Shown: in pieces, positions 1 through 13,867 of the stretch
Numbering within the stretch: position 1 is the first letter of the stretch
Layout of the letters: the number at the start of each line of letters is the position of its first letter
Assembly (NCBI GenBank): GCA_041576165.1
Contig: JBFGLM010000085.1
Coordinates: 1-13,867, forward strand
Source: Acidimicrobiia bacterium
Lineage (GTDB): Bacteria > Actinomycetota > Acidimicrobiia > Spongiisociales > Spongiisociaceae
Length of the DNA: 13,867 nt
Direction of reading: 5' to 3'
Translations under genes and position numbers: made by a program
Notes under the pieces: generated by a model
Database searches by the model: none
What the model was told of the DNA's origin: nothing
Seen by the model: the letters and a program-made list of their open reading frames with translations, nothing else

Positions 1-1
1 C

Positions 2-172
2 GGTCTGCCGCAGCGGGGCGACATCGAGAGGGAGCTCGCGGCTGAACTGGCCCGGCGCCGACGTCTGGAACTCGAGCCACCGGTCCGCATCGTCCGGGGG
101 ATTCAACGCCGGCTGCGCCGAATCCGACCCGGTAGCACCGCTAGTCGAGCCAGTCCCGAACGGCCGCAGTGA
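2..172 (+). CDS. 3' end of an unidentified protein entering from the left edge (partial)
   Basis: Frame starting at base 2 is open to TGA at 170-172: [56 protein letters not shown]. It has a helical, Arg-rich C-terminus and would overlap the convergent transketolase 3' end by 32 nt. No start codon is visible, so it is absent from the ORF track. Confidence 0.45.
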
Positions 173-2093
173 CCGAATCGACTGTGAAACCAAGCTCCTC
201 GGCGATGCGGGCGGCCGGGGCCGATGCCCCGAACCGGTCGATGCCGATCATCAGTCCGCCATCGCCCACAACCCGTTCCCAGCCGAACGTGGCGGCCGCC
301 TCGATCGAGGCAATGGGCAGACCTCCGCCCAACACCGAGCGCCGGTATTCGTCACCCTGGGCGAAGAACAGCTCCCACGACGGCATGCTCACCACCCTCA
401 GCGAATACTGCTCAGCGAGCGCCTCGGCAGTGTCCAGCGCCAGCGAGACCTCCGAGCCGGTCGCAACGAGGACCGCGTCGGTGCCATCGCGAAGGACGTA
501 GGCACCGCGGGCCACGCCACCGACGGCAGCGCCACGGTCGAGGACCGGTATTCCCTGGCGGGTGCCCAGCACAACCACCGGACCTTCCCGATGGTTCAGT
601 GCCACCTCCCATGCCTCCACCATCTCACCGGCGTCGGCCGGGCGTATCACCGTGATGCCCGGCATCGCCCGCAGGGACGCCAGCTGCTCGATGGGCTGGT
701 GGGTCGGCCCGTCCTCGCCCAGGAACACCGACTCGTGGGTGTAGACCCAGATCGAAGGTGCGCCCATCAGCGCGGACAGCCGCACTGCGGGTCGCATGTA
801 GTCACTGAATATGAAGAAAGTCGCACCGTACGGGCGCAACCCACCGTGGAGCGCCATCCCGTTGGTGATCGTGCCCATGGCATGTTCTCGCACCCCGAAA
901 TGGATGTTGCGGCCGGTGCGATCCTTCTTGGAGAAGCTGCCGGAGAACGAGATCTCGGTTTTGGTCGACTCGACCAGGTCGGCCGCCCCGCCAATCAAGC
1001 CGGGCACCTTTTCTGCCATCTGATCGAAGATCTGGCCCATCGCAGCCCGGGTCGCCAGCTTGGAGCCCACTTCGAAGCCAGGGTTGTCCAGCGAAACCGG
1101 CTCCGGGTCGTAGTACGCGTTCCAGCGGGCCGCCAGATCCGGATCGGCTTCGAACATCGCCGACCGACGCTCATTCCACTTGGCATGGGCGGCGCGGCCT
1201 CGCTCCATGGCGGACTGGAAGTGCTCCCGGACGCCGTCCGGGACGTAGAAATCGACGTCGGGCCATCCGACTTCGGCACGCCAGCCGGCGATCTCGGACT
1301 CACCCAGCGGCGCCCCATGTGCCATGGCAGTCCCGGCCTTGGTGGGCGCGCCCTTGGCGATGGTCGTATGGGCAATCACCAGGCTCGGGCGATCCTCCAC
1401 TGCGATGGCCACATCGAACGCCTCGGCAATCGCGGCATCGTCATGTCCGTCGATGCTGACCGTGTGCCAGCCCACGGCCTCAAAGCGAGCCGGCACGTCT
1501 TCGCTGAACGTGATGTCGGTGGAGCCGTCGATCGAGATCTCGTTGTCGTCGTAGACGTAGATCAGCCGGCCCAAGCCCAGGTACCCGGCCAGTGATGCGG
1601 TCTCAGAACTGACCCCTTCCATGAGGTCCCCATCGGAGACGAACCCCCAGGTGCGGTGGCTGACCAGCTCCGAGCCGAAGACGGACCTCAGGTGTTCCTC
1701 TGCGATTGCCATGCCCACCGCTGTCCCGAAACCCTGTCCCAGCGGCCCGGTGGTCATCTCGATACCGATTCCGGGTTCGTACTCGGGGTGCCCGGCGGTG
1801 TGCGAGCCCCACTGGCGGAACGACATCAGCTGCTCCATCGGCAAGGGGAAGCCAGACAGGTGCAGCAGTGAGTAGAGCAGCATCGAGCCGTGCCCGTTGG
1901 AGAGCACGAAACGATCGCGGTCCTCCCAGCGGGGTTCGTCCGGATTCACTTTGAGGTATCGAGTCCAGAGGATCACGGCCAATTCGGCCATCCCCATGGG
2001 TGCGCCGGGATGGCCCGAGTTGGCCTTCTGGACGGCATCCATGGAAAGCGCCCGGATTGTCTGGGCGGCAAGCACGTCAATCGCAGCGGTCAT
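141..2093 (-). CDS. tkt: Transketolase (~650 aa)
   Basis: Motifs [34 protein letters not shown], ThDP-binding SDGDLMEG...[27 protein letters not shown]. Start moved to the ATG at 2093 (MTAAID), which has GGAGGT just upstream (2098-2103, minus strand). Confidence 0.97.
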
Positions 2094-2097
2094 CAGC

Positions 2098-2117
2098 ACC
2101 TCCGGCCCGTGAGCGTA
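2098..2117 (-). promoter_or_regulatory. Putative -10 box (TACGCT, 2112-2117) and Shine-Dalgarno (GGAGGT, 2098-2103) of tkt
   Basis: Minus strand reads TACGCT-cacgggcc-GGAGGT-gctg-ATG, matching the TANNNT -10 consensus and a strong SD. Confidence 0.5.
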
Positions 2118-2148
2118 GCCTCTCAGCCGATCACCGCAGGCTGCGCTC
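2111..2148. repeat. 11-bp inverted repeat with 16-nt spacer in the tkt/sat divergent region
   Basis: GAGCGTAGCCT (2111-2121) and AGGCTGCGCTC (2138-2148) are reverse complements at 10 of 11 positions. Confidence 0.6.
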
Positions 2149-2152
2149 GATC

Positions 2153-2180
2153 TTGTGGATGACACCCGGCCCGGTACACT
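2153..2180 (+). promoter_or_regulatory. Putative housekeeping-sigma promoter of sat-cysC
   Basis: TTGTGG (2153-2158), 16-nt spacer, TACACT (2175-2180), about 80 nt upstream of the GTG start. Confidence 0.4.
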
Positions 2181-2260
2181 CACCAGGAGAGAAGTTTCGG
2201 GCCGACCCGATGCGTCTCAGCCAGTTCCTCTACAACATCCCGATCGAAGGAACCTTTCGC

Positions 2261-3973
2261 GTGCCTACCCAACTGATCACACCACATGGTGGCGCGCTCG
2301 TCGACCTCCTCGTTTCCGACGAGCGCGCAGCCGAACTGAGAGAAGCGTCGCGCTACTGGAGCTCATGGGATTTGACGCAGCGCCAGCTCTGCGACCTCGA
2401 GCTGCTCATGAGCGGCGGGTTTTCCCCGCTGCGCGGATTCATGAACCGGACGGATTACACCAGCGCCCGCGACACCATGCGGCTGGCCGACGGCACGCTG
2501 TTCCCAATCCCGATCACCCTCGACGTGGATGCGGAGTTCGCTGCCTCGGTCGCAGCGGGCCACCGGATCGCGTTACGGGATCCGGAGGGGGTCATGCTGG
2601 CGGTTCTCACCGTCGAGGACATTTGGGAACCGGACAAGAACGAGGAAGCTGAGAAGGCGTTTGGAACCACCAACGCCGAACATCCGGCCGTCGGCTATCT
2701 GATGAAAACTGCGGGTAGCCACTACATTGGCGGATCGATCGAGGGCGTGCACGCTCCCATCCACTATGACTTCGAGTGGCTACGCACCACTCCGGCCGAG
2801 CTCCGCGAGCTTTTTGCCGATCGCGGATGGGACAAAGTCGTGGCATTCCAGACCCGCAATCCCATGCACCGGGCCCACGTCGAGCTCACCCGGCGGGCCG
2901 CCGACGAGTTGGGGGCGCATTTGCTCATCCACCCCGTCGTGGGAATGACCAAGCCTGGTGATGTCGATCATTACACCCGGGTGAGGGTGTATCAGCGGAT
3001 TCTCGGCCGGTATCCAAACGGGGCAGCATTGTCGCTGCTGCCGCTCGCAATGCGGATGGCCGGACCCCGCGAAGCCTTGTGGCACGCCATCATTCGCAAG
3101 AACTACGGCGTCACTCACCTGATCGTCGGGCGCGACCACGCCGGCCCCGGCAGCGACTCGTCGGACACAGCGTTCTACGGGCCCTACGCCGCCCAGGAGT
3201 TGATGTCGCAGCATCAGGACGAGATCGGGGTGGAGATGGTGCCCTTCAAGTTGATGGTGTATGTCCCGTCCCAGGATGCGTACATGCCCGTCGACGAGGT
3301 ACCCGAAGGCACCGAAACCCTCAGCATCTCGGGCACGGACCTCCGGGACCGCCTCGGTAACGGCGACGACATACCCGCGTGGTTCTCTTACCCGGAGGTG
3401 GTCGCCGAGCTGCGGCGCACGAGCCGGCCGCGCCATGAGCAAGGCTTCACAGTGTTCTTCACGGGATTGTCCGGCTCGGGCAAGTCGACCGTCGCCAACG
3501 CGCTGATGGTGAAGCTGCTCGAACGCGGCGGCCGCACGGTCACCATGCTCGACGGTGATGTGGTCCGCAAGAACCTGTCAAAGGGCCTCGGTTTTTCAAA
3601 GGAAGACCGGGACACCAACGTCGAACGGATCGGGTATGTCGCGTCCGAGATCACCAAGGCGGGAGGAGTGGCGATCTGCGCCCCCATCGCCCCTTATGCC
3701 GGTTCGCGCGCAGCCAACCGTGATGCCATCAGCAGCCAGGGCGGCTACATCCTGGTGTACGTCTCCACACCCCTGGAGGTATGCGAGGCCCGGGATCGCA
3801 AGGGCCTCTATGCGAAAGCCCGGGCGGGCGTCCTCAAGGAATTCACCGGCATTTCGGATCCCTACGAGGAGCCGGAAGACGCCGACCTGACGATCGACAC
3901 GACCGAGATCACGCCGGAGCATGCAGCCGATGAGATCGTCGGATACCTCGAGGCTGAGGGGTACCTGGGCTGA
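2261..3973 (+). CDS. sat/cysC: Bifunctional sulfate adenylyltransferase (Sat-type ATP sulfurylase) / adenylylsulfate kinase (~570 aa)
   Basis: N-terminal Sat domain: PHGG, GFSPL.GFM, FQTRNPMHRAH, MRMAGPREA, VGRDHAG, ISGT. C-terminal APS kinase: FTGLSGSGKST P-loop, LDGD, LGFSKEDR, RDRKGLY, FTGISDPYEEP. Start set at GTG 2261 (VPTQLITPHGG) after an AAGGA SD; the ORF-track extension to 2000 overlaps tkt. Confidence 0.95.
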   Translation: MPTQLITPHGGALVDLLVSDERAAELREASRYWSSWDLTQRQLCDLELLMSGGFSPLRGFMNRTDYTSARDTMRLADGTLFPIPITLDVDAEFAASVAAGHRIALRDPEGVMLAVLTVEDIWEPDKNEEAEKAFGTTNAEHPAVGYLMKTAGSHYIGGSIEGVHAPIHYDFEWLRTTPAELRELFADRGWDKVVAFQTRNPMHRAHVELTRRAADELGAHLLIHPVVGMTKPGDVDHYTRVRVYQRILGRYPNGAALSLLPLAMRMAGPREALWHAIIRKNYGVTHLIVGRDHAGPGSDSSDTAFYGPYAAQELMSQHQDEIGVEMVPFKLMVYVPSQDAYMPVDEVPEGTETLSISGTDLRDRLGNGDDIPAWFSYPEVVAELRRTSRPRHEQGFTVFFTGLSGSGKSTVANALMVKLLERGGRTVTMLDGDVVRKNLSKGLGFSKEDRDTNVERIGYVASEITKAGGVAICAPIAPYAGSRAANRDAISSQGGYILVYVSTPLEVCEARDRKGLYAKARAGVLKEFTGISDPYEEPEDADLTIDTTEITPEHAADEIVGYLEAEGYLG

Positions 3974-3974
3974 G

Positions 3975-4040
3975 CGGTTTCGACCGGGGGCCCGATCCAC
4001 GACGGCTCAGGCCGGCGACGTCACCGGTCGTGCCGGATCC
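3975..4040 (+). terminator. Possible structure-only terminator or 3' stabilising hairpins after sat-cysC
   Basis: CGGT-TTCG-ACCG hairpin (3975-3986) directly after the stop, then GATCC/GGATC (3994-3998/4035-4039) and CACGAC/GTCGTG (3998-4003/4027-4032). There is no U-tract. Confidence 0.25.
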
Positions 4041-4183
4041 AGTGCGATCGCTCGCCGGCCGGGGCCGGGGCGAACGGCGCCGTTGACGGCCGCCCAATGA
4101 TCGAACCGACGGACTCGCCGTGTCGTTCTTGGCCCCAATCGGACAACAAACAAACACGATGGTGTACGGCGCGGGCGCTTATA

Positions 4184-4300
4184 GGTTGGGTGACTACGCC
4201 CGGCTGGGGTCGCCGCTCCCCTTGCTGTCGCCACCTCGATGATGGCGCCGGGCTTGCGGCCGGTCCAGGAGGAAGCCAGATGCACAACGCCCACCCGACC
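4184..4300 (+). ncRNA. Candidate structured RNA / cis-regulatory leader upstream of cysQ (family not recognised; strand not certain)
   Basis: Outer helix GGTTGGGTG (4184-4192) / CACCCGACC (4292-4300). Inner helix GCCCGGC (4198-4204) / GCCGGGC (4247-4253) encloses two hairpins, GGGG/CCCC (4206-4209/4218-4221) and GCCA/TGGC (4230-4233/4243-4246). Confidence 0.35.
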
Positions 4301-4327
4301 GAATCAACCGCCCTCACGCGTCGTTGA
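4280..4327 (+). CDS. Putative 15-aa leader peptide/uORF MHNAHPTESTALTRR
   Basis: Perfect AGGAGG (4267-4272) lies 7 nt before ATG 4280. The stop TGA (4325-4327) overlaps the cysQ ATG (4327-4329) as TGATG. Confidence 0.45.
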   Translation: MHNAHPTESTALTRR

Positions 4328-5109
4328 TGTCCGTCGCTCGCCAACACGACCTCGACCGCATCGAGCATGCTCTCGACGTGGCCGGCAAAGCGCTGGCGCC
4401 GTTCACTCCGGGGACCATCGATGCCACCCTGAAGACCGGCGGCGACCCGCTCACCGCCGCGGATACAGCAGTGGACGAGGCTTTGAGGTCGGCGCTGTGG
4501 AACGCTGGGGAAGGGTGGCTCTCAGAGGAGACCGCTGACGACGGACGCCGGTTGAGCTGCGACCGCACCTGGATCGTGGACCCAATTGACGGCACACGCG
4601 AGTTCATACAGGGCATTCCGGAGTGGTGCGTATCGGTCGGTTTGGTCGAGGACGGCCTGCCGGTGGCAGGCGGGATCCTGTCGCCCGCCGCCGGGCACCG
4701 CATCGTTGGGTCGATCGAAACCGGCGTAACGCTCAACGGACAACCGGTCGCTGCGAGCGGCTGCGCGTCGCTCGCAGGGGCGTTGGTCCTTGCATCACGC
4801 AGCGAGGTGAAGCGGGGCGAATGGAACCGGTTCTTCGCTACCGAGATCTCGGTCCGCAACATGGGCTCGGTGGCATACAAGCTGGGCCTGGTGGCGGCCG
4901 GGCTGGCCGACGCCACATGGACCCTTGTTCCCAAGAATGAGTGGGACGTAGCGGCCGGGGCTGCACTGGTGCGCGCAGCGGGCGCCGAGGCTTGGGACCT
5001 TTCCGGATCTCCTCGACAGTTCAACCAGCCCGACCCAAAGATGCCCGGGTTCGTGGCCGCCACCGCCGGCATTGCGGGGCAGCTCCCTGCGTTCCTCGGG
5101 GTTGGCTGA
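4327..5109 (+). CDS. cysQ: Inositol monophosphatase/FIG-family phosphatase, probably 3'(2'),5'-bisphosphate nucleotidase CysQ (~260 aa)
   Basis: Motifs DPLTAAD, LSEE, WIVDPIDGTREF, ASRS, MGSVAYK, EWDVAAG. It sits directly downstream of the PAPS-synthesising Sat-CysC, which favours CysQ over SuhB. Confidence 0.85.
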   Translation: MSVARQHDLDRIEHALDVAGKALAPFTPGTIDATLKTGGDPLTAADTAVDEALRSALWNAGEGWLSEETADDGRRLSCDRTWIVDPIDGTREFIQGIPEWCVSVGLVEDGLPVAGGILSPAAGHRIVGSIETGVTLNGQPVAASGCASLAGALVLASRSEVKRGEWNRFFATEISVRNMGSVAYKLGLVAAGLADATWTLVPKNEWDVAAGAALVRAAGAEAWDLSGSPRQFNQPDPKMPGFVAATAGIAGQLPAFLGVG

Positions 5110-5127
5110 CGCCGACGCCCAGCGTTA

Positions 5128-5856
5128 TCAGCCCGCCATCGCCAGCTCAGCCAAGACGGCGGCAACCGCCTCCGGAGGGTACGCCCCCGTGATCCGCTCG
5201 ACGACGGTGCCGTCGCCATCCAGAATCACGTAGTACGGGAAAGCGGTTAGCCCGTACGACCGGGCGATCGATGACGCCGCGTCGTCGACCAGAACCGGGG
5301 CCGTCCAACCTTCCCGCTCAAGCCACGCTGAAGGCGGGTAGTTGGCCCGAGCCGGGTCATTGGCCGTGGCCACCGAGATCAGCTCGGTGCCGGCCGGGAA
5401 CCCCGTCCCGTCCGTATATGCCTGCATTGGCGGGACCTCCGCCTGGCAGTGCGGGCACCAATGGGCCAGGAACAGTACCGCCTTGGGCGTTCCATCATGT
5501 GTGAGCGACAGGGGCATTCCGTCGAAGTCGACAGATGTGAACTCGGGAGCGATCGCGCCCACCGCCGGATCGGATGGTGCCTGCGGGTCATGCGGCGCCA
5601 GCGTGCCACCGTCGATTTGCACGTCCGGATTGTCCGGCATGGCACCGGACGGGGCTTCCTCGTTGGCAAGGCCAACGGCCACAACCACGATGAACAGCAG
5701 AACCGCCAGCGCCCCGCCGATACCGAGGAGAACCCTCGGATTCATCCGCGGCTCGCGATGGTCATCGACAGCCGGGAGGGCCCTCCGAGCTCGACCACCT
5801 TGGTGGTTCCCGAGCTTGCCACGCGGCTCCGGCCGCTTTCCTTCAGTTCTGGCCAT
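5128..5856 (-). CDS. Membrane-anchored thioredoxin-fold disulfide oxidoreductase (TlpA/ResA/DsbE-like, WCPHC)
   Basis: Basic N-tail, one TM helix (LLGIGGALAVLLFIVVVAVGL), APEF, FLAHWCPHCQAEVP active site, YGLTAFP cis-Pro loop, ILDGDG. The ATG at 5856 directly follows the upstream TGA and has a GAGGAG SD. Confidence 0.88.
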   Translation of the reverse strand: MARTEGKRPEPRGKLGNHQGGRARRALPAVDDHREPRMNPRVLLGIGGALAVLLFIVVVAVGLANEEAPSGAMPDNPDVQIDGGTLAPHDPQAPSDPAVGAIAPEFTSVDFDGMPLSLTHDGTPKAVLFLAHWCPHCQAEVPPMQAYTDGTGFPAGTELISVATANDPARANYPPSAWLEREGWTAPVLVDDAASSIARSYGLTAFPYYVILDGDGTVVERITGAYPPEAVAAVLAELAMAG

Positions 5857-6408
5857 TCACGGACTCCTCGTTGGGGTTGGTGCACGAGCGGCGTGGATTA
5901 CCCGCTGGCGGACCCACATCAGGGCGGCCACAAACAGAAAGCCGGAAAGCGCCATGAGCGGGATCGTCACGAAGCCGAAGTGCGATACCCAGATCTGGGT
6001 GCACGGCGCGGTAGCCGAGCAAAAACTCTCGCCCGGCAGCCACCCGTGCTGTTCCGCCAGGTGGAACACGGACACGCTCGACCCTGCCAGCGACCAGGGG
6101 ATCGCCCACCTCCAAATGTTCGCCCACCCCTGCCACCAGGCCAGCCAGAGCACAAGCGCGAGTGGATACATGAACCCACGCTGGATCCAGCAGAGCAGGC
6201 ACGGCACGAAGTGAGCCACCTCCGACAAGTAGAGGCTGCCGAGAGTGGCCACGGTGGCGACGCTGGCTGCGGCCGGTAGGGCATACGGCCCGATCTCCGG
6301 CGCCAGGTTGTCACGCCGGTACGAAACCATGACTCCCGCGATGCCGGCAGCGCCGGCCAGGGACACCAGGCTCAAAACGGCGAAGAACAGCGTCATTACT
6401 TCGGTCAT
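5857..6408 (-). CDS. dsbB: Disulfide bond formation protein B (DsbB/BdbC family, ~183 aa)
   Basis: GSLYLSE, PCLLCWIQR.FMYPL, second Cys pair CSATAPC, FGFVTIP, multiple TM helices. Start at ATG 6408 (MTEVM). Confidence 0.9.
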   Translation of the reverse strand: MTEVMTLFFAVLSLVSLAGAAGIAGVMVSYRRDNLAPEIGPYALPAAASVATVATLGSLYLSEVAHFVPCLLCWIQRGFMYPLALVLWLAWWQGWANIWRWAIPWSLAGSSVSVFHLAEQHGWLPGESFCSATAPCTQIWVSHFGFVTIPLMALSGFLFVAALMWVRQRVIHAARAPTPTRSP

Positions 6409-6523
6409 TGCCGCCCCCAAGATTGCTGGATCCAGGTGCGCACACCAAAGCGGCAATCGTCCCTTTGCCGCCCGACGTCTGACCCGGCGCGGCGGCGGCA
6501 GACGCGAGGGTGATCGACGCAGG

Positions 6524-6529
6524 TACCAT
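6524..6529 (+). promoter_or_regulatory. Putative -10 box (TACCAT) of a leaderless VIT1 transcript
   Basis: TACCAT is followed by 7 nt and then ATG 6537, with no SD in between. Confidence 0.45.
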
Positions 6530-6536
6530 GCTGCTC

Positions 6537-7262
6537 ATGAACGCTCCCGCTGATCCGGTCGCGCATCCCTACGTCCCGCACGTCGGTGAGTCGCGCCAGT
6601 ACATGCGCGACATCATCCTCGGCGTCAACGATGGTCTCGTTTCGACCTTCCTACTCGTGACCGGCGTCGTCGGCGGTGGTCTGGCAGCCAGCCAAGTGTT
6701 CCTCACCGCCATCGCCGGTGCCATCGCCGGCGCCATTTCGATGGGAGCCGGCGAATATCTCGCGACCGTGTCTCAAGAAGAGGTCTTCGACCGCGAAATC
6801 GCACTGGAGCGGGAACACATCGCCCACCACCGCGAGCAGGAAGTCGAGCAGCTGCACGAGTTCTTCGAAGAGATGGGAGTTGACGGCGACGATCTGGAGA
6901 CCGTCGTTGAGGTGTTCGCCAAAGATGACGAGCGACTGCTGAACGCGATGAAGCGCCTGGAGTTCGGTGTCGTAGAGTCGGAGCGCCGCTCGCCCTACGC
7001 CGCCATGTTCGCCTCCAGCGGCTTGTTCTTGCTGGGCTCGCTCACGTCGGTAGTACCGTTTGCATTCACCACAGATGTCCAGCTCGGGCTCGCCCTGGCA
7101 TCTGTGCTGACGGGCATCGGGCTGTTCCTGGTGGGGGTGCTCAAGACGACGGTGACCAACACGAATCCCATTAGGGCCGGGCTCACGAACCTCGTCATCA
7201 CCGGGATCGGCGGCATCGCCGCATTTCTCATCGGGAGCGTGGTCGACGCCAGCCTCGGCTGA
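6537..7262 (+). CDS. VIT1/CCC1 family Fe2+/Mn2+ transporter (~241 aa)
   Basis: RDIILGVNDGLVS, AGAISMGAGEYL, Glu/His-rich cytoplasmic segment (REIALEREHIAHHREQEVEQL), C-terminal TM helices. Alternative starts are 6510 and 6528. Confidence 0.92.
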   Translation: MNAPADPVAHPYVPHVGESRQYMRDIILGVNDGLVSTFLLVTGVVGGGLAASQVFLTAIAGAIAGAISMGAGEYLATVSQEEVFDREIALEREHIAHHREQEVEQLHEFFEEMGVDGDDLETVVEVFAKDDERLLNAMKRLEFGVVESERRSPYAAMFASSGLFLLGSLTSVVPFAFTTDVQLGLALASVLTGIGLFLVGVLKTTVTNTNPIRAGLTNLVITGIGGIAAFLIGSVVDASLG

Positions 7263-7306
7263 GTCGCCGGCCCAGACTCACGACGTTGCCGGTTCCCCTT
7301 CGGAAT

Positions 7307-9274
<1,968 letters not shown>

Positions 9275-9410
9275 CGTGGCACACTCCCTGTTTTGACCGT
9301 ATTTCGGGGGCGAGGCTACCGCACACGCCGAACCGGTGCGGGCGTGGCTCCGTGTCCCCGACAACCAATTGGCGATAGGTGCGGCCGTGGCTGCCGATGT
9401 AGAGACAACG

Positions 9411-10799
9411 ATGTCCGGTAGCGTGAATGAGTTCACCCGCAAGACCCGAGCACGGCCTATGTCGCCACGCGAGACACAGCACTGGTTTGTTCGCCTGTTT
9501 GCGCTGGCAGTCATCGCCCACGTCGTGGGCAATCCCCCGCTCGGCCCCGACGCAGCCGGCCTGACGGCACTGGCTGCCGGTGGCGCCGCCTGTCTGCTGG
9601 CCGTTCAGCCCTCTGACCGGCGGTTGCTCGTAGCAGCATGCGTGCTGGTGCCGGTCACCGCCTGGCAGGAGGCTCCACAGTTGGGCAACCACTGGCTCCT
9701 CATGTCCTTCGTTTCGGTGGCGATCCTGGTGAGCCAGCGCCGCACCGGATGGTGGGAGCGCTTCGCTCCGACCGGGCGATGGATGCTCATCGGCTTCTAC
9801 TCGTTTGCCGCCTTTGCCAAGCTCAATACGGCTTTCTTCGACTCAACCGCGTCGTGCAGCGTGTTCTACGCCAATCAGAGCCTCTCGTCTTGGGGGCTAC
9901 CGCTTATCACTCCGGGCAGCGGGATCGCGCTGGCCACGGCGATCATGACTGCAGTGATCGAGCTGTCGATACCCCTCCTGCTGCTGGTCGACCGCACGCG
10001 GCACATCGGTGTGGCGCTCGGATACGCGTTCCACACCCTGATATCGCTCGATCTCGACCAGCATTTCTACGACTTCACAGCTGTGCTTTTCGCTCTGTTC
10101 ATCTTGTTCGCGCCCACGGCCGCAGCCCGGCTCGAGCGGTCCGTTGAGCCGCATCTCACGCCTGCGCGCCGAGCCGTCGTTGCCACCATGCTCGGGCTGT
10201 TCGTGCTTGCCGCGGTGCTGCCCCTCAGCCGGCTGAGCCTGTGGCTGCTGACGACCGGCTTCTTCTTCGTGTGGATCCCGACTGCAATTGCCCTGACCGT
10301 CGCCACCTCATGGCGGTTGCGGACACCGGACTGGGTGGGTTTGCGGGTATCGGGCCTGGCGGCGACGCTCCTGCTGGCGCTGGTCGGCCTCAACGGCCTA
10401 TCGCCCTACCTGGAGCTCAAGACCGGTTTCGGGTTCAACATGTACTCAAACCTGGTGACCGCCAATGGGGAGAGCAACCACCTCATCGTGCCCGGCACAG
10501 CTCAGCTGACCGCCGGCCATGCCGATGCGGTCGTCATCATTGCTACGGACGATCCGGCGCTCGAGGCATACGTCGACAGCGGCTACGCGGTCGCATTTCC
10601 CAGACTGGCCCACTATTTGGCCGACCACCCCGATACCTCCGTGACCTACCGGTCGCCGGCTGGAGGTGAACCGACGACCGTGCAGGGGGCCGAGGTCGGC
10701 CGGCATATGGCTGCCATTCCCCACAAGCTGGCGGTGTTCCGCTCGATCGACCTGCAGGTGCCCGCCCGCTGTCAATCGATCTGGCTGCCCGCGCTCTGA
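9411..10799 (+). CDS. Polytopic membrane protein, HTTM / vitamin K-dependent gamma-carboxylase-like
   Basis: Many hydrophobic helices. Motifs LGNHWLL, FYSFAAFAKLNTAFF, IELSIPLLLL, FH..I, YDFT and PYLELKTGFGFNMYSNL resemble the HTTM NH / Y..AG.AKL / E / FH / W-F.M pattern. There is a soluble C-terminal domain. Start is uncertain (ATG 9411 or 9459). Confidence 0.65.
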   Translation: MSGSVNEFTRKTRARPMSPRETQHWFVRLFALAVIAHVVGNPPLGPDAAGLTALAAGGAACLLAVQPSDRRLLVAACVLVPVTAWQEAPQLGNHWLLMSFVSVAILVSQRRTGWWERFAPTGRWMLIGFYSFAAFAKLNTAFFDSTASCSVFYANQSLSSWGLPLITPGSGIALATAIMTAVIELSIPLLLLVDRTRHIGVALGYAFHTLISLDLDQHFYDFTAVLFALFILFAPTAAARLERSVEPHLTPARRAVVATMLGLFVLAAVLPLSRLSLWLLTTGFFFVWIPTAIALTVATSWRLRTPDWVGLRVSGLAATLLLALVGLNGLSPYLELKTGFGFNMYSNLVTANGESNHLIVPGTAQLTAGHADAVVIIATDDPALEAYVDSGYAVAFPRLAHYLADHPDTSVTYRSPAGGEPTTVQGAEVGRHMAAIPHKLAVFRSIDLQVPARCQSIWLPAL

Positions 10800-10809
10800 C
10801 CTGGCGAGC

Positions 10810-12567
10810 TCACCGGCGCCCGATCGTCACCGGCTGTTGGCTGCGATCGGGAGCAGCAGCGTCGAGTGACCCGCGGGCGTGGTAGGAGCTGCGGACCAGC
10901 GGGCCGGACTCGACATGGGCCAATCCGATCCGGTGGCCGAAGGCCGCGTATTCCTCGAACTCGTCCGGCTCCACGTAACGGTGGATGCGCCGGTGACGCG
11001 GTGTCGGTCGTAGGTACTGGCCGATAGTGACGATGTCGACGCCCACCGCCCGCAAATCGGCCAGCGCGCCGAGAATCTCTTCCCGGGTCTCGCCCATCCC
11101 GACGATCAGCCCCGATTTGATCATCACGGTCGGCTCGATCCATCTGGCTCGGGCGAGCAGGGCGAGGGAGCGTCCGTAGCTGGCCGAGGTGCGGATCTCG
11201 CGTTGGAGCCGCAACACGGTCTCGGTGTTGTGGTTGAGGACCGATGGCCGGGCCTCCATCACCCGCCGCAGCGCCTCGTGGTCGCCTTTGAAATCGGGGA
11301 TGAGTACCTCGACGTCACAGCCAGGAACCCGCTGGTGGATCTCCCGCACGGTGTGGGCAAAGATCTCCGATCCGCCATCGTCGAGATCATCGCGATTGAC
11401 GGACGTGATCACGGCGTGACGCAGACCCATCTTCTCGACCGCCTCCGCTGCCCGGAAGGGCTCGAACACGTCGTATTCCGTTGGCCGGCCGGTCGTCACA
11501 TTGCAGAACCCGCACGCTCGGGTGCATTTGTCTCCGAGAATCATCAGCGTGGCGGTGCCCTGGCCCCAGCATTCGTAGATGTTGGGACAGCCCGCCTCCT
11601 CGCACACGGTGTTCAGCTGCAGGTCGCGCATCAAGCGTTTCAACTCGACGTAGCCGTCCCCCATGGCGGCTGTCACCTTCATCCATGGTGGGCGCTCCGG
11701 CTCACCCTCGAGCCGCCCGTTGACCACGACCGGCTCGGCGGCGCGCACTTCCGGTGAGAAAGTCCCCGAGCTGAGGAGCTGATCGACCTCATACGTACGA
11801 GCCCGGCCCTGCCCCCGGCTGAACGCACCGAGCTGGACCTCAGTGGTCTCGAATCCAAACACGCTCTGCATGTGCGGTATCAGACGCTCGACGATGTCCT
11901 CGATCACGAGCTCGCGGCCGGTCAACTCGACCAGGGATGTCGCGGATCGGTCCGTGATACCGCAGGGGTTGATCCGAGAGAAGAAGGACATGTCCGGGTC
12001 GACATTCAGGGCGAACCCGTGCATCGAGACGTGGCGCGAGACCCGCACGCCGATGGCGGCGACCTTGCCCCGGTGGGTCCACACGCCGGTCAGTCCTTCC
12101 TCCCGCCCCGCCTCGACGCCGAAGTCCGAGAGCGTGCGAATGAGCACTTCTTCGAGCGCCCGGACGTAGGGGACGATCTTGCGGGTGTCAGCCAGACGGA
12201 TGATGGGATAGCCGACGAGCTGGCCGGGCCCGTGGTACGTGATGTCCCCGCCGCGATCGATCTCGAACATCTCGGCACCGAGAGAGGCCAGCTGCTCCGA
12301 AGAGATCAGCAAGTTGGATCCGTCGCCGTTGCGCCCGACCGTGTAGACGTGGGAGTGCTCCAGCAGCAGCAGGTAATCGTCTGCGGTGCGGCCACCGACC
12401 TTGCCCTCCCATAGCGCCCGTTGCAGATCCCAGGCTTCGGCGAAAGGAAGCCGGCCCAGCCACCGCGTTCGCAGCTGGGTGGGCCGGGCGACCAAGCTCG
12501 TCGCGACGCCCACTGTCTTCGCTCCGGCCTCGTCGAGCGGGCCGGCCGGACCGCTCTCGCCGTTCAC
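10810..12567 (-). CDS. lipB-lipA: Fused octanoyltransferase LipB - lipoyl synthase LipA (~585 aa)
   Basis: N-domain: LLLLEHSHVYTVGR, DRGGDITYHGPGQLVGYPI, GVW..KVAAIG, HGFALNV, INPCG. C-domain: RPPWMK, TVCEEAGCPNIYECW, CTRACGFC, NHNTET, KSGLIVGMGE, IGQYLRP, GPLVRSSYHA. One continuous frame. The GTG start at 12567 overlaps the E2 stop (GTGA) and has an AGGA SD. Confidence 0.93.
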   Translation of the reverse strand: MNGESGPAGPLDEAGAKTVGVATSLVARPTQLRTRWLGRLPFAEAWDLQRALWEGKVGGRTADDYLLLLEHSHVYTVGRNGDGSNLLISSEQLASLGAEMFEIDRGGDITYHGPGQLVGYPIIRLADTRKIVPYVRALEEVLIRTLSDFGVEAGREEGLTGVWTHRGKVAAIGVRVSRHVSMHGFALNVDPDMSFFSRINPCGITDRSATSLVELTGRELVIEDIVERLIPHMQSVFGFETTEVQLGAFSRGQGRARTYEVDQLLSSGTFSPEVRAAEPVVVNGRLEGEPERPPWMKVTAAMGDGYVELKRLMRDLQLNTVCEEAGCPNIYECWGQGTATLMILGDKCTRACGFCNVTTGRPTEYDVFEPFRAAEAVEKMGLRHAVITSVNRDDLDDGGSEIFAHTVREIHQRVPGCDVEVLIPDFKGDHEALRRVMEARPSVLNHNTETVLRLQREIRTSASYGRSLALLARARWIEPTVMIKSGLIVGMGETREEILGALADLRAVGVDIVTIGQYLRPTPRHRRIHRYVEPDEFEEYAAFGHRIGLAHVESGPLVRSSYHARGSLDAAAPDRSQQPVTIGRR

Positions 12568-13867
12568 ATCACTTCCTGTTCCCAGTCCCATGTCTCGAGA
12601 TTCTGCTTGATACGGCGGAGAAACAGAACAGCGGTGGAACCGTCGAATGCCCGATGATCCCACGACAGGCCCAGATAGCCGATCGGCCGGATGCCGATCG
12701 TATCTTGCCCATCGGCAGTCGTGACCACTGTTGGTCGCTTGGTCACGGTGTCGGTGGAGAGGATCGCAACGTTGGGGACGTTGATGATCGGCGCCGACAT
12801 GAACGAACCAAACGGCCCGGGATTGGTGATCGTGAACGTGCTGCCCGACAGGTCATCGGGCTCGAGCTTTCGGTCCCGGGCTTTCTCGGCCAGGGCCCTC
12901 ACCGCTCGGGCGATCCCGCGCAGCCGCAGGCTGTCGGCCTGGCGGATCGACGTGACGACGAGACCCTCCTGGTTGAGGTCGACGGCGATGCCCAGATTGA
13001 TGTCGTGATGGAACACGGCCTTACGTTCCTCGAGGTAGAAAGAGCTGTTCACGACCGGATACGCGCGCAGCGCGTCCATCGTCGCTCGGGCGATGAAGGG
13101 CAGGTACGTGAGGGAGAACCCCTCTTCGGCCTTGAACTGATCCTTGTGCGCCTGGCGCACCCGCTCGACCGCGGAGTAGTCGACCTCGACTGCTGTCCAC
13201 ACGTGGGCAGCCGTCTGCTTGGCCTTGATCATGTTGGCGCCGATCACGGCTCGCAGCCGGTCCAGCTCCCGTTCCTCGTCACCCCCTCCGGCCGCCGGCG
13301 CCGCCGGCGGGGGTGCCGGCGCACTGGGAGCGGCGGCCGGTGCGGCCGCGGCCGGGGCAGGGGCCGTCGGGGTCTCTGGCGCCGCGGCGGGGGCAGGGGC
13401 GGTCTCGGCGGCGGGTGTCTCCGCCGGGGGGGCCGGAGCCGCCGCCGGGGCCGGAGCCGCCGTGCCGCTTCGTTCGATGAACGCCAGCACATCGTTGCGG
13501 GTGATACGCCCATCCCTCCCGGTCCCTGTGATTTGGGCGGGATCCAGGTTGTGTTCGCGAACCAGTTTGCGGACAACCGGTGACAGGAAGAGCTTGGCAC
13601 CATTGGCCGGCGCCGCTTCGGTGCCGGCAGCGGCTGCAGCTGCGGGCGCAGCTGCCGGTTGGGGCTGGGGCTCTGGTTCGGCGACCGCGACCGGCTCCGG
13701 CTCAGGCGCCGTTTCGCTCGCAGTCACCACCGGTACCGGTTCGGTAGCAGCCTCAGCCGCCGGAGCAGGCTCGGCAGGCGCCGCCTCCCCCGCCGCCGGC
13801 TCACCTATCACCGCCAACGGCGTCCCGACTTCAACCGTCTCACCCTCAGGCACCAGAATCTCCAACA
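12564..13867 (-). CDS. Dihydrolipoamide acyltransferase E2 of a 2-oxoacid dehydrogenase complex (DlaT/SucB/PdhC-like), 5'-truncated by the window edge
   Basis: End of a lipoyl domain (EILVPEGETVEVGTPLAVI), Ala/Pro/Glu linker, peripheral subunit-binding domain (LSPVVRKL...GTGRDGRITRNDV), second linker, and catalytic domain with GSTFTITNPG, PIIN.P and WDHRAFDG. Confidence 0.95.
   Translation of the reverse strand, partial: LEILVPEGETVEVGTPLAVIGEPAAGEAAPAEPAPAAEAATEPVPVVTASETAPEPEPVAVAEPEPQPQPAAAPAAAAAAGTEAAPANGAKLFLSPVVRKLVREHNLDPAQITGTGRDGRITRNDVLAFIERSGTAAPAPAAAPAPPAETPAAETAPAPAAAPETPTAPAPAAAAPAAAPSAPAPPPAAPAAGGGDEERELDRLRAVIGANMIKAKQTAAHVWTAVEVDYSAVERVRQAHKDQFKAEEGFSLTYLPFIARATMDALRAYPVVNSSFYLEERKAVFHHDINLGIAVDLNQEGLVVTSIRQADSLRLRGIARAVRALAEKARDRKLEPDDLSGSTFTITNPGPFGSFMSAPIINVPNVAILSTDTVTKRPTVVTTADGQDTIGIRPIGYLGLSWDHRAFDGSTAVLFLRRIKQNLETWDWEQEVM
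13285..13470 (-). repeat. Low-complexity Ala/Pro linker repeats inside E2
   Basis: APAPAAAPAPPAETPAAETAPAPAAAPETP..., for example GCCGGAGCCGCCG twice near 13432-13462. A second linker lies at about 13610-13800. Confidence 0.7.

Follow-up and report, generated by a model that had tools for sequence, protein, structure and literature searches.

The assembly of the lipoyl cofactor is textbook two-enzyme chemistry, in which the octanoyltransferase LipB and the lipoyl synthase LipA both act on a protein-bound substrate, and in which LipA consumes its own auxiliary cluster at each turnover. Consecutive enzymes of a pathway are often fused. The closest described relatives are the stand-alone LipB (1W66) and LipA (5EXI/5EXJ/5EXK) of Mycobacterium tuberculosis, human LIAS in complex with the H protein (8UGO, 8V0J), and the NCBIfam family NF053790, a 'bifunctional lipoate--protein ligase/lipoyl synthase'. 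Here, we describe a gene on a 13,867-nucleotide (nt) contig of an Acidimicrobiia bacterium (Actinomycetota; family Spongiisociaceae; GenBank assembly GCA_041576165.1, contig JBFGLM010000085.1, positions 1 to 13,867 of the forward strand; this whole stretch is referred to as the window), in which a LipB and a LipA domain are joined in one reading frame and which very probably encodes a bifunctional lipoyl-cofactor assembly enzyme.

The gene is situated in a single minus-strand open frame (10810..12663) that counts 617 codons from its first possible start and, according to the open reading frame list and its translation, contains zero internal stops. A database protein of 585 amino acids (aa; P0002) is identical to its product, and residues are numbered here according to this 585-aa reading unless the 617-aa reading is stated. 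The gene and the parts of it that carry its assignment are the following:

10810..12567, minus strand: whole LipB-LipA coding sequence, with 585 codons and a TGA stop (10810-10812), starting from GTG (12567-12565)
11839..12504, minus strand: LipB octanoyltransferase domain, residues 22-243 (Pfam, NCBIfam, sequence and fold matches)
12064..12066, minus strand: codon of Lys168 in KVAAIG, which makes up the LipB Cys/Lys dyad together with Cys202 (aligned to KVAAIG of 1W66; codon checked)
11962..11964, minus strand: codon of Cys202 in PCG, the LipB cysteine that would carry the acyl thioester (aligned to PCG of 1W66; codon checked)
11710..11838, minus strand: linker of roughly 45 aa, residues 244-286, semi-conserved and predicted to be partly structured, with a predicted local distance difference test score (pLDDT) of 70-83 (alignment, model)
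10855..11709, minus strand: LipA lipoyl synthase domain, residues 287-571 (Pfam, NCBIfam, sequence and fold matches)
11569..11604, minus strand: CX4CX5C, Cys322/327/333, ligands of the auxiliary [4Fe-4S] cluster (aligned to 5EXI; codons checked)
11503..11526, minus strand: CX3CX2C, Cys348/352/355, ligands of the radical-SAM (S-adenosylmethionine) cluster (aligned to 5EXI; codons checked)
10882..10893, minus strand: RSSY, Arg559-Tyr562, holding the serine ligand of the auxiliary cluster (aligned to 5EXI; codons checked)

In the 617-aa reading, Pfam recognised LplA-B_cat at residues 75-265 (158 bits), LIAS_N at residues 322-359 and Radical_SAM at residues 374-535, while Lip_prot_lig_C, the C-terminal accessory domain of LplA, gave no Pfam match in the fusion protein. 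The curated NCBIfam cut-offs were passed for LipB (PRK14345/NF010925 with 210.1 bits against a cut-off of 155, and TIGR00214 with 156.9 against 83.55) as well as for LipA (PRK05481/NF004019 with 400.5 bits against a cut-off of 203, and TIGR00510 with 346.4 against 310.25). Sequence searches matched the LipB half to 1W66 (1.5e-48) and 2QHS (2.3e-48), and the LipA half to 5EXI (2.5e-88). Moreover, an AlphaFold2 model built on a 60-row alignment (mean pLDDT of 89.6; predicted template-modelling score, pTM, of 0.90) placed the LipB fold on 2QHS and 1W66 (template-modelling scores TMt of 0.94 and 0.88, respectively) and the LipA fold on chain I of 5EXK (TMt of 0.92, with a root-mean-square deviation of 1.4 A over 284 columns). 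All sequence and fold criteria applied place the protein in both LipB and LipA.

The positions of the LipA motifs CX3CX2C, CX4CX5C and RSSY were taken from the alignment. Across 60 aligned fused proteins, reaching down to 46% identity, Lys168, Cys202, the RGG loop, His112, the six cluster cysteines, Arg559, Ser560 and Ser561 were invariant (60/60), and Tyr562 was kept in at least 90%. These results establish the architecture, the intact catalytic residues, the fold and the conservation of the fusion. They agree with the first-pass annotation of this DNA, which had claimed an uninterrupted in-frame fusion of a full LipB and a full LipA domain, and whose domain coordinates and estimate of a linker of ~50 aa were correct to within a few codons; its concern that one domain might be inactive is not borne out at the residue level, where all catalytic residues of LipB and LipA are present.

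From these residues we infer both activities. The LipB domain would take octanoate from octanoyl-acyl carrier protein (octanoyl-ACP) onto Cys202 as a thioester and, with Lys168 as the partner of Cys202, would pass it to the lysine of a lipoyl domain (of the E2 acyltransferase or GcvH). The radical-SAM cluster of LipA (Cys348/352/355) would then abstract hydrogens from C6 and C8, and LipA would insert two sulfurs drawn from its auxiliary cluster (Cys322/327/333, Ser561). A likely consequence of the fusion would be that the two activities are held at a 1:1 ratio, with both sites on one body.

Compared with the stand-alone enzymes of M. tuberculosis, the fusion halves belong to the same families and have the same catalytic residues and folds; the LipA half is 51% identical to its M. 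tuberculosis counterpart over the 284 superposed columns. The Cys/Lys dyad and Cys176 of LipB are named in PMC9307952. Human LIAS with its H protein superposes on the LipA half as well (TMt of 0.91, 42% identity), and by this analogy the latter should bind a lipoyl-carrier substrate as LIAS does; LIAS, unlike the window's protein, is a single-domain enzyme to which a separate transferase delivers the substrate. The NF053790 proteins resemble the window's protein in carrying an enzyme of the ligase/transferase superfamily N-terminal to LipA in a chain of ~600 aa. However, only the LipA half of the window's protein was matched by this model (positions 323-604 of 606, with 359.2 bits), missing the cut-off of 800, and its N-terminal domain is instead of the LipB type, with a Cys/Lys dyad and without Lip_prot_lig_C. 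For that reason, the window's protein should use octanoyl-ACP rather than ATP and free lipoate.

The fusion is confirmed as real, and not an assembly artefact. Within the family and order to which the window belongs, 40 of 41 genomes have a match to the fusion protein, and each of the 24 other genomes of the family has one full-length match in a closed frame, several of them in single-contig assemblies (the tally includes the unpublished G028 and G039, on which the conclusion does not depend). Three of these 24 show a stop inside the match, but there the match begins at query residue 1-2, i.e., upstream of the real start, and for one of the three (G013, locus L006) it was confirmed that no stop lies between the domains. 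At the level of the class, 149 of 151 sampled genomes have a match to the fusion protein; according to a hand count over 150 listed rows, one match bridges the linker in 132 of the 151, without a stop inside the match in 114 of these and with one or two stops, perhaps at the match ends, in the other 18. All 15 class genomes with a LipA-only high-scoring segment pair among the matches listed were fetched: 13 encode both domains in an uninterrupted frame, one is truncated at the end of its contig, and in one (G167, L112) the linker is expanded and includes an N-run together with two TAA codons. Because of this N-run, G167 was not counted as a true re-split. As for the two that remain of the 149, the match in G136 starts at a contig end and that in G067 falls outside those listed. 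A frameshift inside the LipB domain was seen in two class genomes, G031 (L122) and G083 (L123), and the departures in G167, G031 and G083 could be assembly errors or decaying copies.

Public sequences establish the same taxonomic spread. Among 80 public loci, 61 were fused, 15 split and four LipA only (three at contig ends, one from Marinimicrobia). The titles of the 61 fused loci read Acidimicrobiia, Acidimicrobiales, Microthrix, Spongiisociaceae, Poriferisocius and OCS155, next to a few vague or odd bin labels, and a taxonomy lookup placed Spongiisociaceae, Microthrix and Poriferisocius all in the class Acidimicrobiia. At least 120 database protein clusters of 538-608 aa were found, the best 120 of which all carry PF21948 and PF04055. 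Furthermore, contigs from public sequencing runs (X1 record 3, 11584-12238; X2 record 12, 11575-12246) span positions 11700-11860 gap-free, and partial gap-free cover comes from two other studies (X5 record 22, 11599-11810; X6 record 29, 11798-12057), so that four runs of three studies were covered, X1 and X2 possibly being the window's own source. The first-pass annotation had asked whether reads across 11700-11860 would reveal a stop or indel, and whether close relatives would all have split genes; neither a stop nor an indel appeared where these contigs agree with the window, and close relatives were, to the contrary, all found to be fused. It had rightly anticipated the database label as well: such proteins are named only 'lipoyl synthase' or 'lipoic acid synthetase', and the joined architecture is thus already in databases under an incomplete name.

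Elsewhere in the phylum, the two genes appear to be separate. In a sample of 201 genomes of the phylum (including the unpublished G245, G226, G264, G317, G182, G340, G293 and G198), all 15 class members were fused; among the matches listed for the non-members, no domain-bridging match without a stop occurred, LipA being encoded in frames of ~290-450 aa and LipB being a separate match. Long open frames around LipA had raised the possibility of a fusion in other Actinomycetota classes, which was rejected upon inspection of the ten genomes with the longest frames, as all ten were split (seven with lipB and lipA in different frames, and three with both in the same frame but separated by one or two stops). 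The 15 split public loci stem from Dietzia, Nocardiaceae, Microtetraspora, Micromonospora, Dactylosporangium (two), Nocardioides, Nanopelagicales (two), Mycobacterium, Streptomonospora, Brooklawnia and actinobacterial bins (three). As in the window, lipB directly precedes lipA and an E2 gene lies upstream in these other Actinomycetota; unlike in the window, a stop codon and a short spacer part the two genes in 15/15 loci. That lipB and lipA stand in the same frame, with one or more stop codons between them, in all 15 is probably a matter of search selection, the alignments extending through a stop.

This arrangement hints at how the linker arose. In split Actinomycetota, lipA starts ~50-250 nt past lipB and has a conserved N-terminal extension ending in RKPxW(I/M)(K/R). 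In the fused proteins, RKPxW(I/M/L)(K/R) marks the start of the LipA domain, and the stretch preceding it still resembles the LipA extension and the LipB tail. Since motif and flanking likeness are shared with the split genes, the linker looks like an old LipB tail, spacer and LipA N-terminus that are read through. Accounting for this, adjacent lipB and lipA genes would have lost the intervening stop codon in the ancestor of the class Acidimicrobiia, upon which the old LipB tail and the LipA N-terminal extension would have turned into the linker. The linker is the least conserved part of the fusion protein: measured between fixed alignment anchors (trimmed-sequence residues 216 and 290), the linker region spans 46-116 aa, with a median of 74, in 69 non-redundant proteins (74 aa in the window's protein). 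The linker has a constant length in the order to which the window belongs, where it contains two conserved motifs. In a tree of 168 LipA domains (FastTree only, unrooted), all 29 named fused Acidimicrobiia loci fell in one clade with 99% local support, which has 46 rows and includes the window's LipA, and the 15 split Actinomycetota loci formed a separate clade (100%) beside it.

Fusions of the two domains also occur in other phyla. In the ESM Atlas, fused LipB-LipA clusters were commonest in Planctomycetota, and LplA-LipA clusters with an extra ligase C-domain (606-610 aa) were commonest in Bacteroidota. A scan of 1.84 billion representatives yielded 24,546 matches, the best 150 of which were sorted by matching against the two halves of the window's protein into 73 with LipB before LipA (in 50 of which both domains are close to full length), seven with LipA before LipB (six close to full length), 66 with LipA only and four with LipB only. 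Pfam upheld the domain order in every protein tested (7/7 for the reverse and 11/11 for the forward order). Few of these proteins are named: the forward order is represented by one 'Planctomycetes bacterium', one Phycisphaerae and one Elusimicrobia, and the reverse order by one Oligoflexia. Because the reverse order exists, at least one independent fusion event must have taken place. The fusions of other phyla, which were seen as database proteins only, resemble the window's protein in having both domains in one chain of 490-580 aa, but the tree separates their LipA domains from the Acidimicrobiia clade (with weak support). The LipB dyad was kept in 55 of the 56 near-full fused representatives, and all six cysteines likewise in 55. 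The deviating proteins, both from outside the class, are P0188, in which Val and Pro replace the LipB dyad residues, and P0177, which has Ser at one radical-SAM Cys. In addition, five LipA proteins of 480-543 aa (P0216, P0218, P0223, P0269 and P0261) carry extensions of ~60-250 residues at either end that Pfam did not recognise, and these may be further, unnamed LipA fusions.

A full-text literature search, with subscription journals outside its scope and with mentions that could be missed, found no paper describing a LipB-LipA fusion, and the fusion goes unmentioned in the accessible parts of PMC10332631, PMC3904984, PMC12246082, PMC9307952 and PMC3917532. Nevertheless, the rarity that the first-pass annotation had implied did not hold up: in the sampled class, the fusion is the usual state, and other phyla contain it with either domain first. 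As it is normal in the whole class Acidimicrobiia and occurs in other phyla as well, the fusion is real but only moderately unusual.

The gene directly follows that of an E2 acyltransferase, and the features at this junction are the following:

12564..13865, minus strand: upstream E2 acyltransferase, 3' part, with the E3-binding and catalytic domains (Pfam); its lipoyl domain runs off the contig
12564..12567, minus strand: GTGA overlap of the fusion-gene start with the E2 stop (TGA, 12564-12566)
12589..12591, minus strand: alternative in-frame ATG start, giving 593 aa
12505..12567, minus strand: N-terminal leader, residues 1-21, poorly conserved, with a pLDDT of 40-44 (alignment, model)

The GTG at 12567 is most likely the start of the fusion gene, as judged from its surroundings: a Shine-Dalgarno-like run (AGGAAG) lies 5-10 nt upstream of it, no such run was found upstream of the ATG at 12591, and the gene call on the contig uses the GTG. 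Within the poorly conserved leader region, three bases (1 + 2, in frame overall) at 12498-12500 are absent from one contig of run X2. Of the 88 loci with a LipB match, 64 have an E2 gene immediately upstream and on the same strand; the gap between E2 and the LipB domain is usually below 120 nt in fused loci, whereas E2 mostly lies 1-3.5 kb away, rather than abutting, in split Actinomycetota. Of these 64 loci, 29 offer a start codon that overlaps with the stop of E2 (by a hand count that includes the window, and in which L013 and L014 repeat L002 and L004). The fusion gene is therefore probably translated in step with the E2 gene via the GTGA overlap, and E2 is the predicted substrate of the fusion enzyme. 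A triple E2-LipB-LipA fusion, considered in view of open frames of up to ~1200 aa, was rejected, as the E2 frame enters LipB in 0/64 loci; the very long frames in relatives are open alternative frames over E2.

To predict whether the two domains contact each other, LipB (residues 24-250) and LipA (residues 285-575) were folded as two chains, between which the 60-row alignment was divided accordingly. The interface score was 0.90 (0.91, 0.90 and 0.90 in the runs), compared with 0.00 for the best of three controls, and the interface comprised 76-78 contacts with at least 98% contact agreement between runs and a partner pLDDT of 88 or more. The interface mark set by the tool is reached by 116/157 solved complexes and 2/215 mismatched pairs, counts that hold only roughly here because our own alignment was used. 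Contacts were predicted between residues 33-65 and 243-248 of LipB and residues 428-430, 451-475, 496-509 and 547-548 of LipA. A sequence search of the structure database found no solved entry that holds relatives of both LipB and LipA, and structure comparison found no solved chain spanning both domains (TMq at most 0.48), so the result is not the memory of a known complex. The interface prediction thus supports, in the model's terms, that the domains bind each other, and in Acidimicrobiia the predicted arrangement is a rigid packing of the domains, as opposed to a loose tether. Ten LipA positions at the predicted interface (452, 455, 457, 463, 465, 469, 472, 503, 507 and 508) have A/G/S/V/Q in Acidimicrobiia, with Gln455 being invariant, as opposed to P, Y/F, R/K and D/E in split Actinomycetota, LipA-only proteins and other fusions. 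These surface positions are hence polar in stand-alone Actinomycetota LipA but occupied by small residues in that of the window, and the fusions of other phyla keep the polar residues of stand-alone LipA there.

Taken together, these predictions raise the possibility that the Acidimicrobiia fusion is a rigid two-site machine whose interface is specific to the lineage (strand 31-39 and helix 42-58 of LipB, with linker strand 241-246, against LipA helices 464-477 and 495-507), made in step with E2, on which a new lipoyl domain would be octanoylated and sulfurated on one body without release. We put this forward tentatively and consider it doubtful as a whole. Several points weigh against the reading of the protein as a bifunctional, rigidly packed enzyme. 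The interface score was obtained from an alignment of fused proteins, a type that the tool's calibration did not cover, and the interface residues were not more conserved than the rest of their domain (p = 0.22 for LipB, 0.14 for LipA). The shift towards small residues was weakly stronger at the interface than elsewhere (p of 0.03-0.16; p = 0.16 versus split Actinomycetota and 0.04 versus LipA-only proteins), and it amounts to one evolutionary event in a single lineage. None of the listed public runs is on record as RNA, and the genome bin has an estimated contamination of 7.5%. Finally, the window's genome, in which only one LipA match and one LipB-class match were found, also contains two neighbouring LplA-like genes (contig 23, L094 and L095), which score 139 and 57 bits against TIGR00545 with its cut-off of 280, as well as a weak LipL-like gene (contig 14, L096; 37 bits, cut-off 400). 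Owing to these LplA-like and LipL-like genes, the fusion need not be the sole lipoylation route, and a salvage or relay route may exist beside it. The first-pass annotation had suggested that the octanoylated lipoyl domain could be handed from one site to the other; the one observation that bears on this is the predicted fixed interface, which carries no information on substrate traffic, and any advantage of a substrate hand-off would be a matter of inference from the architecture.

The bifunctional enzyme proposed here has three competitors. The one that fares best, albeit improbable, holds that the fusion is made whole but works as two enzymes, either through cleavage of the linker or through additional translation of a separate LipA that begins inside the gene, close to the Trp-Met of PPWMK. 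The poor conservation of the linker and the 46-116 residues that its region covers across the class would fit such an arrangement, as would the in-frame ATG (Met296) at the start of the LipA domain. However, Met296 sits in the conserved RKPxW(I/M/L)(K/R) motif and is Ile or Leu in many relatives, so that it is not a conserved start. The constant linker length and conserved motifs in the window's order, the linker pLDDT of 70-83, the whole-protein pTM of 0.90 and the defined predicted interface likewise speak for a joined form, and the class-wide closed frame argues that selection sees that form.

Still less probable is that one domain has lost its activity and is retained for a structural or regulatory role, leaving a single activity. 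Among the 56 full-length fused representatives, one without the LipB dyad (P0188) and one with a radical-SAM Cys-to-Ser change (P0177) show that such losses occur, but in the fusion itself Lys168, Cys202, the RGG loop, His112, the six cysteines and RSS are present and invariant in 60/60, both halves exceed the curated family cut-offs, and no second LipB-class or LipA gene was seen in the genome that could replace a lost activity. The notion that the single frame results from an assembly or sequencing error (a lost stop or an indel joining two genes), to which a 13.9-kb contig of a metagenome-type bin with the above contamination might give rise, is already refuted by the closed frame in 24/24 family genomes, 61/80 public loci and at least 120 database clusters, and by contigs of four runs from three studies that match the window gap-free across the linker.

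Some other genes in the window were noted as well. On the plus strand, a 487-aa frame with many hydrophobic stretches and no Pfam match (9336-10799) converges on the fusion gene, with 10 nt between the stops. Further away, PUA_2, ATP-sulfurylase and APS kinase domains are fused in one 657-aa frame (2000-3973, plus strand); the ATP-sulfurylase/APS kinase fusion is a known bifunctional architecture of sulfate activation. A redoxin/thioredoxin-like gene adjoins a DsbB-like gene (5128-6456, minus strand), next to a VIT1-family iron transporter gene (6510-7262, plus strand) and a 301-aa frame without Pfam match (4314-5219, minus strand).

The known chemistry of lipoylation is unchanged by the bifunctional fusion. 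With 'lipoyl synthase' as the only name given by annotation, LipB will mistakenly be counted as absent when pathways are reconstructed for Acidimicrobiia, a class that abounds in seawater, sponges, soil and activated sludge. What appears to be new here is the predicted, defined domain interface with its Acidimicrobiia small residues, and the putative coupling element formed by the GTGA overlap with the E2 stop; the predicted rigid packing and the tight coupling to the E2 gene are the part most worth experiment. A class-wide fusion with a predicted fixed interface would offer a natural object for testing the direct passage of an octanoyl-lipoyl domain between sites, and it opens the second question of how a 1:1 ratio of the activities may benefit the cell. 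If the rigid two-site machine is true, it would constitute a natural system in which to study LipB-to-LipA channelling, and whether stand-alone LipB and LipA associate.

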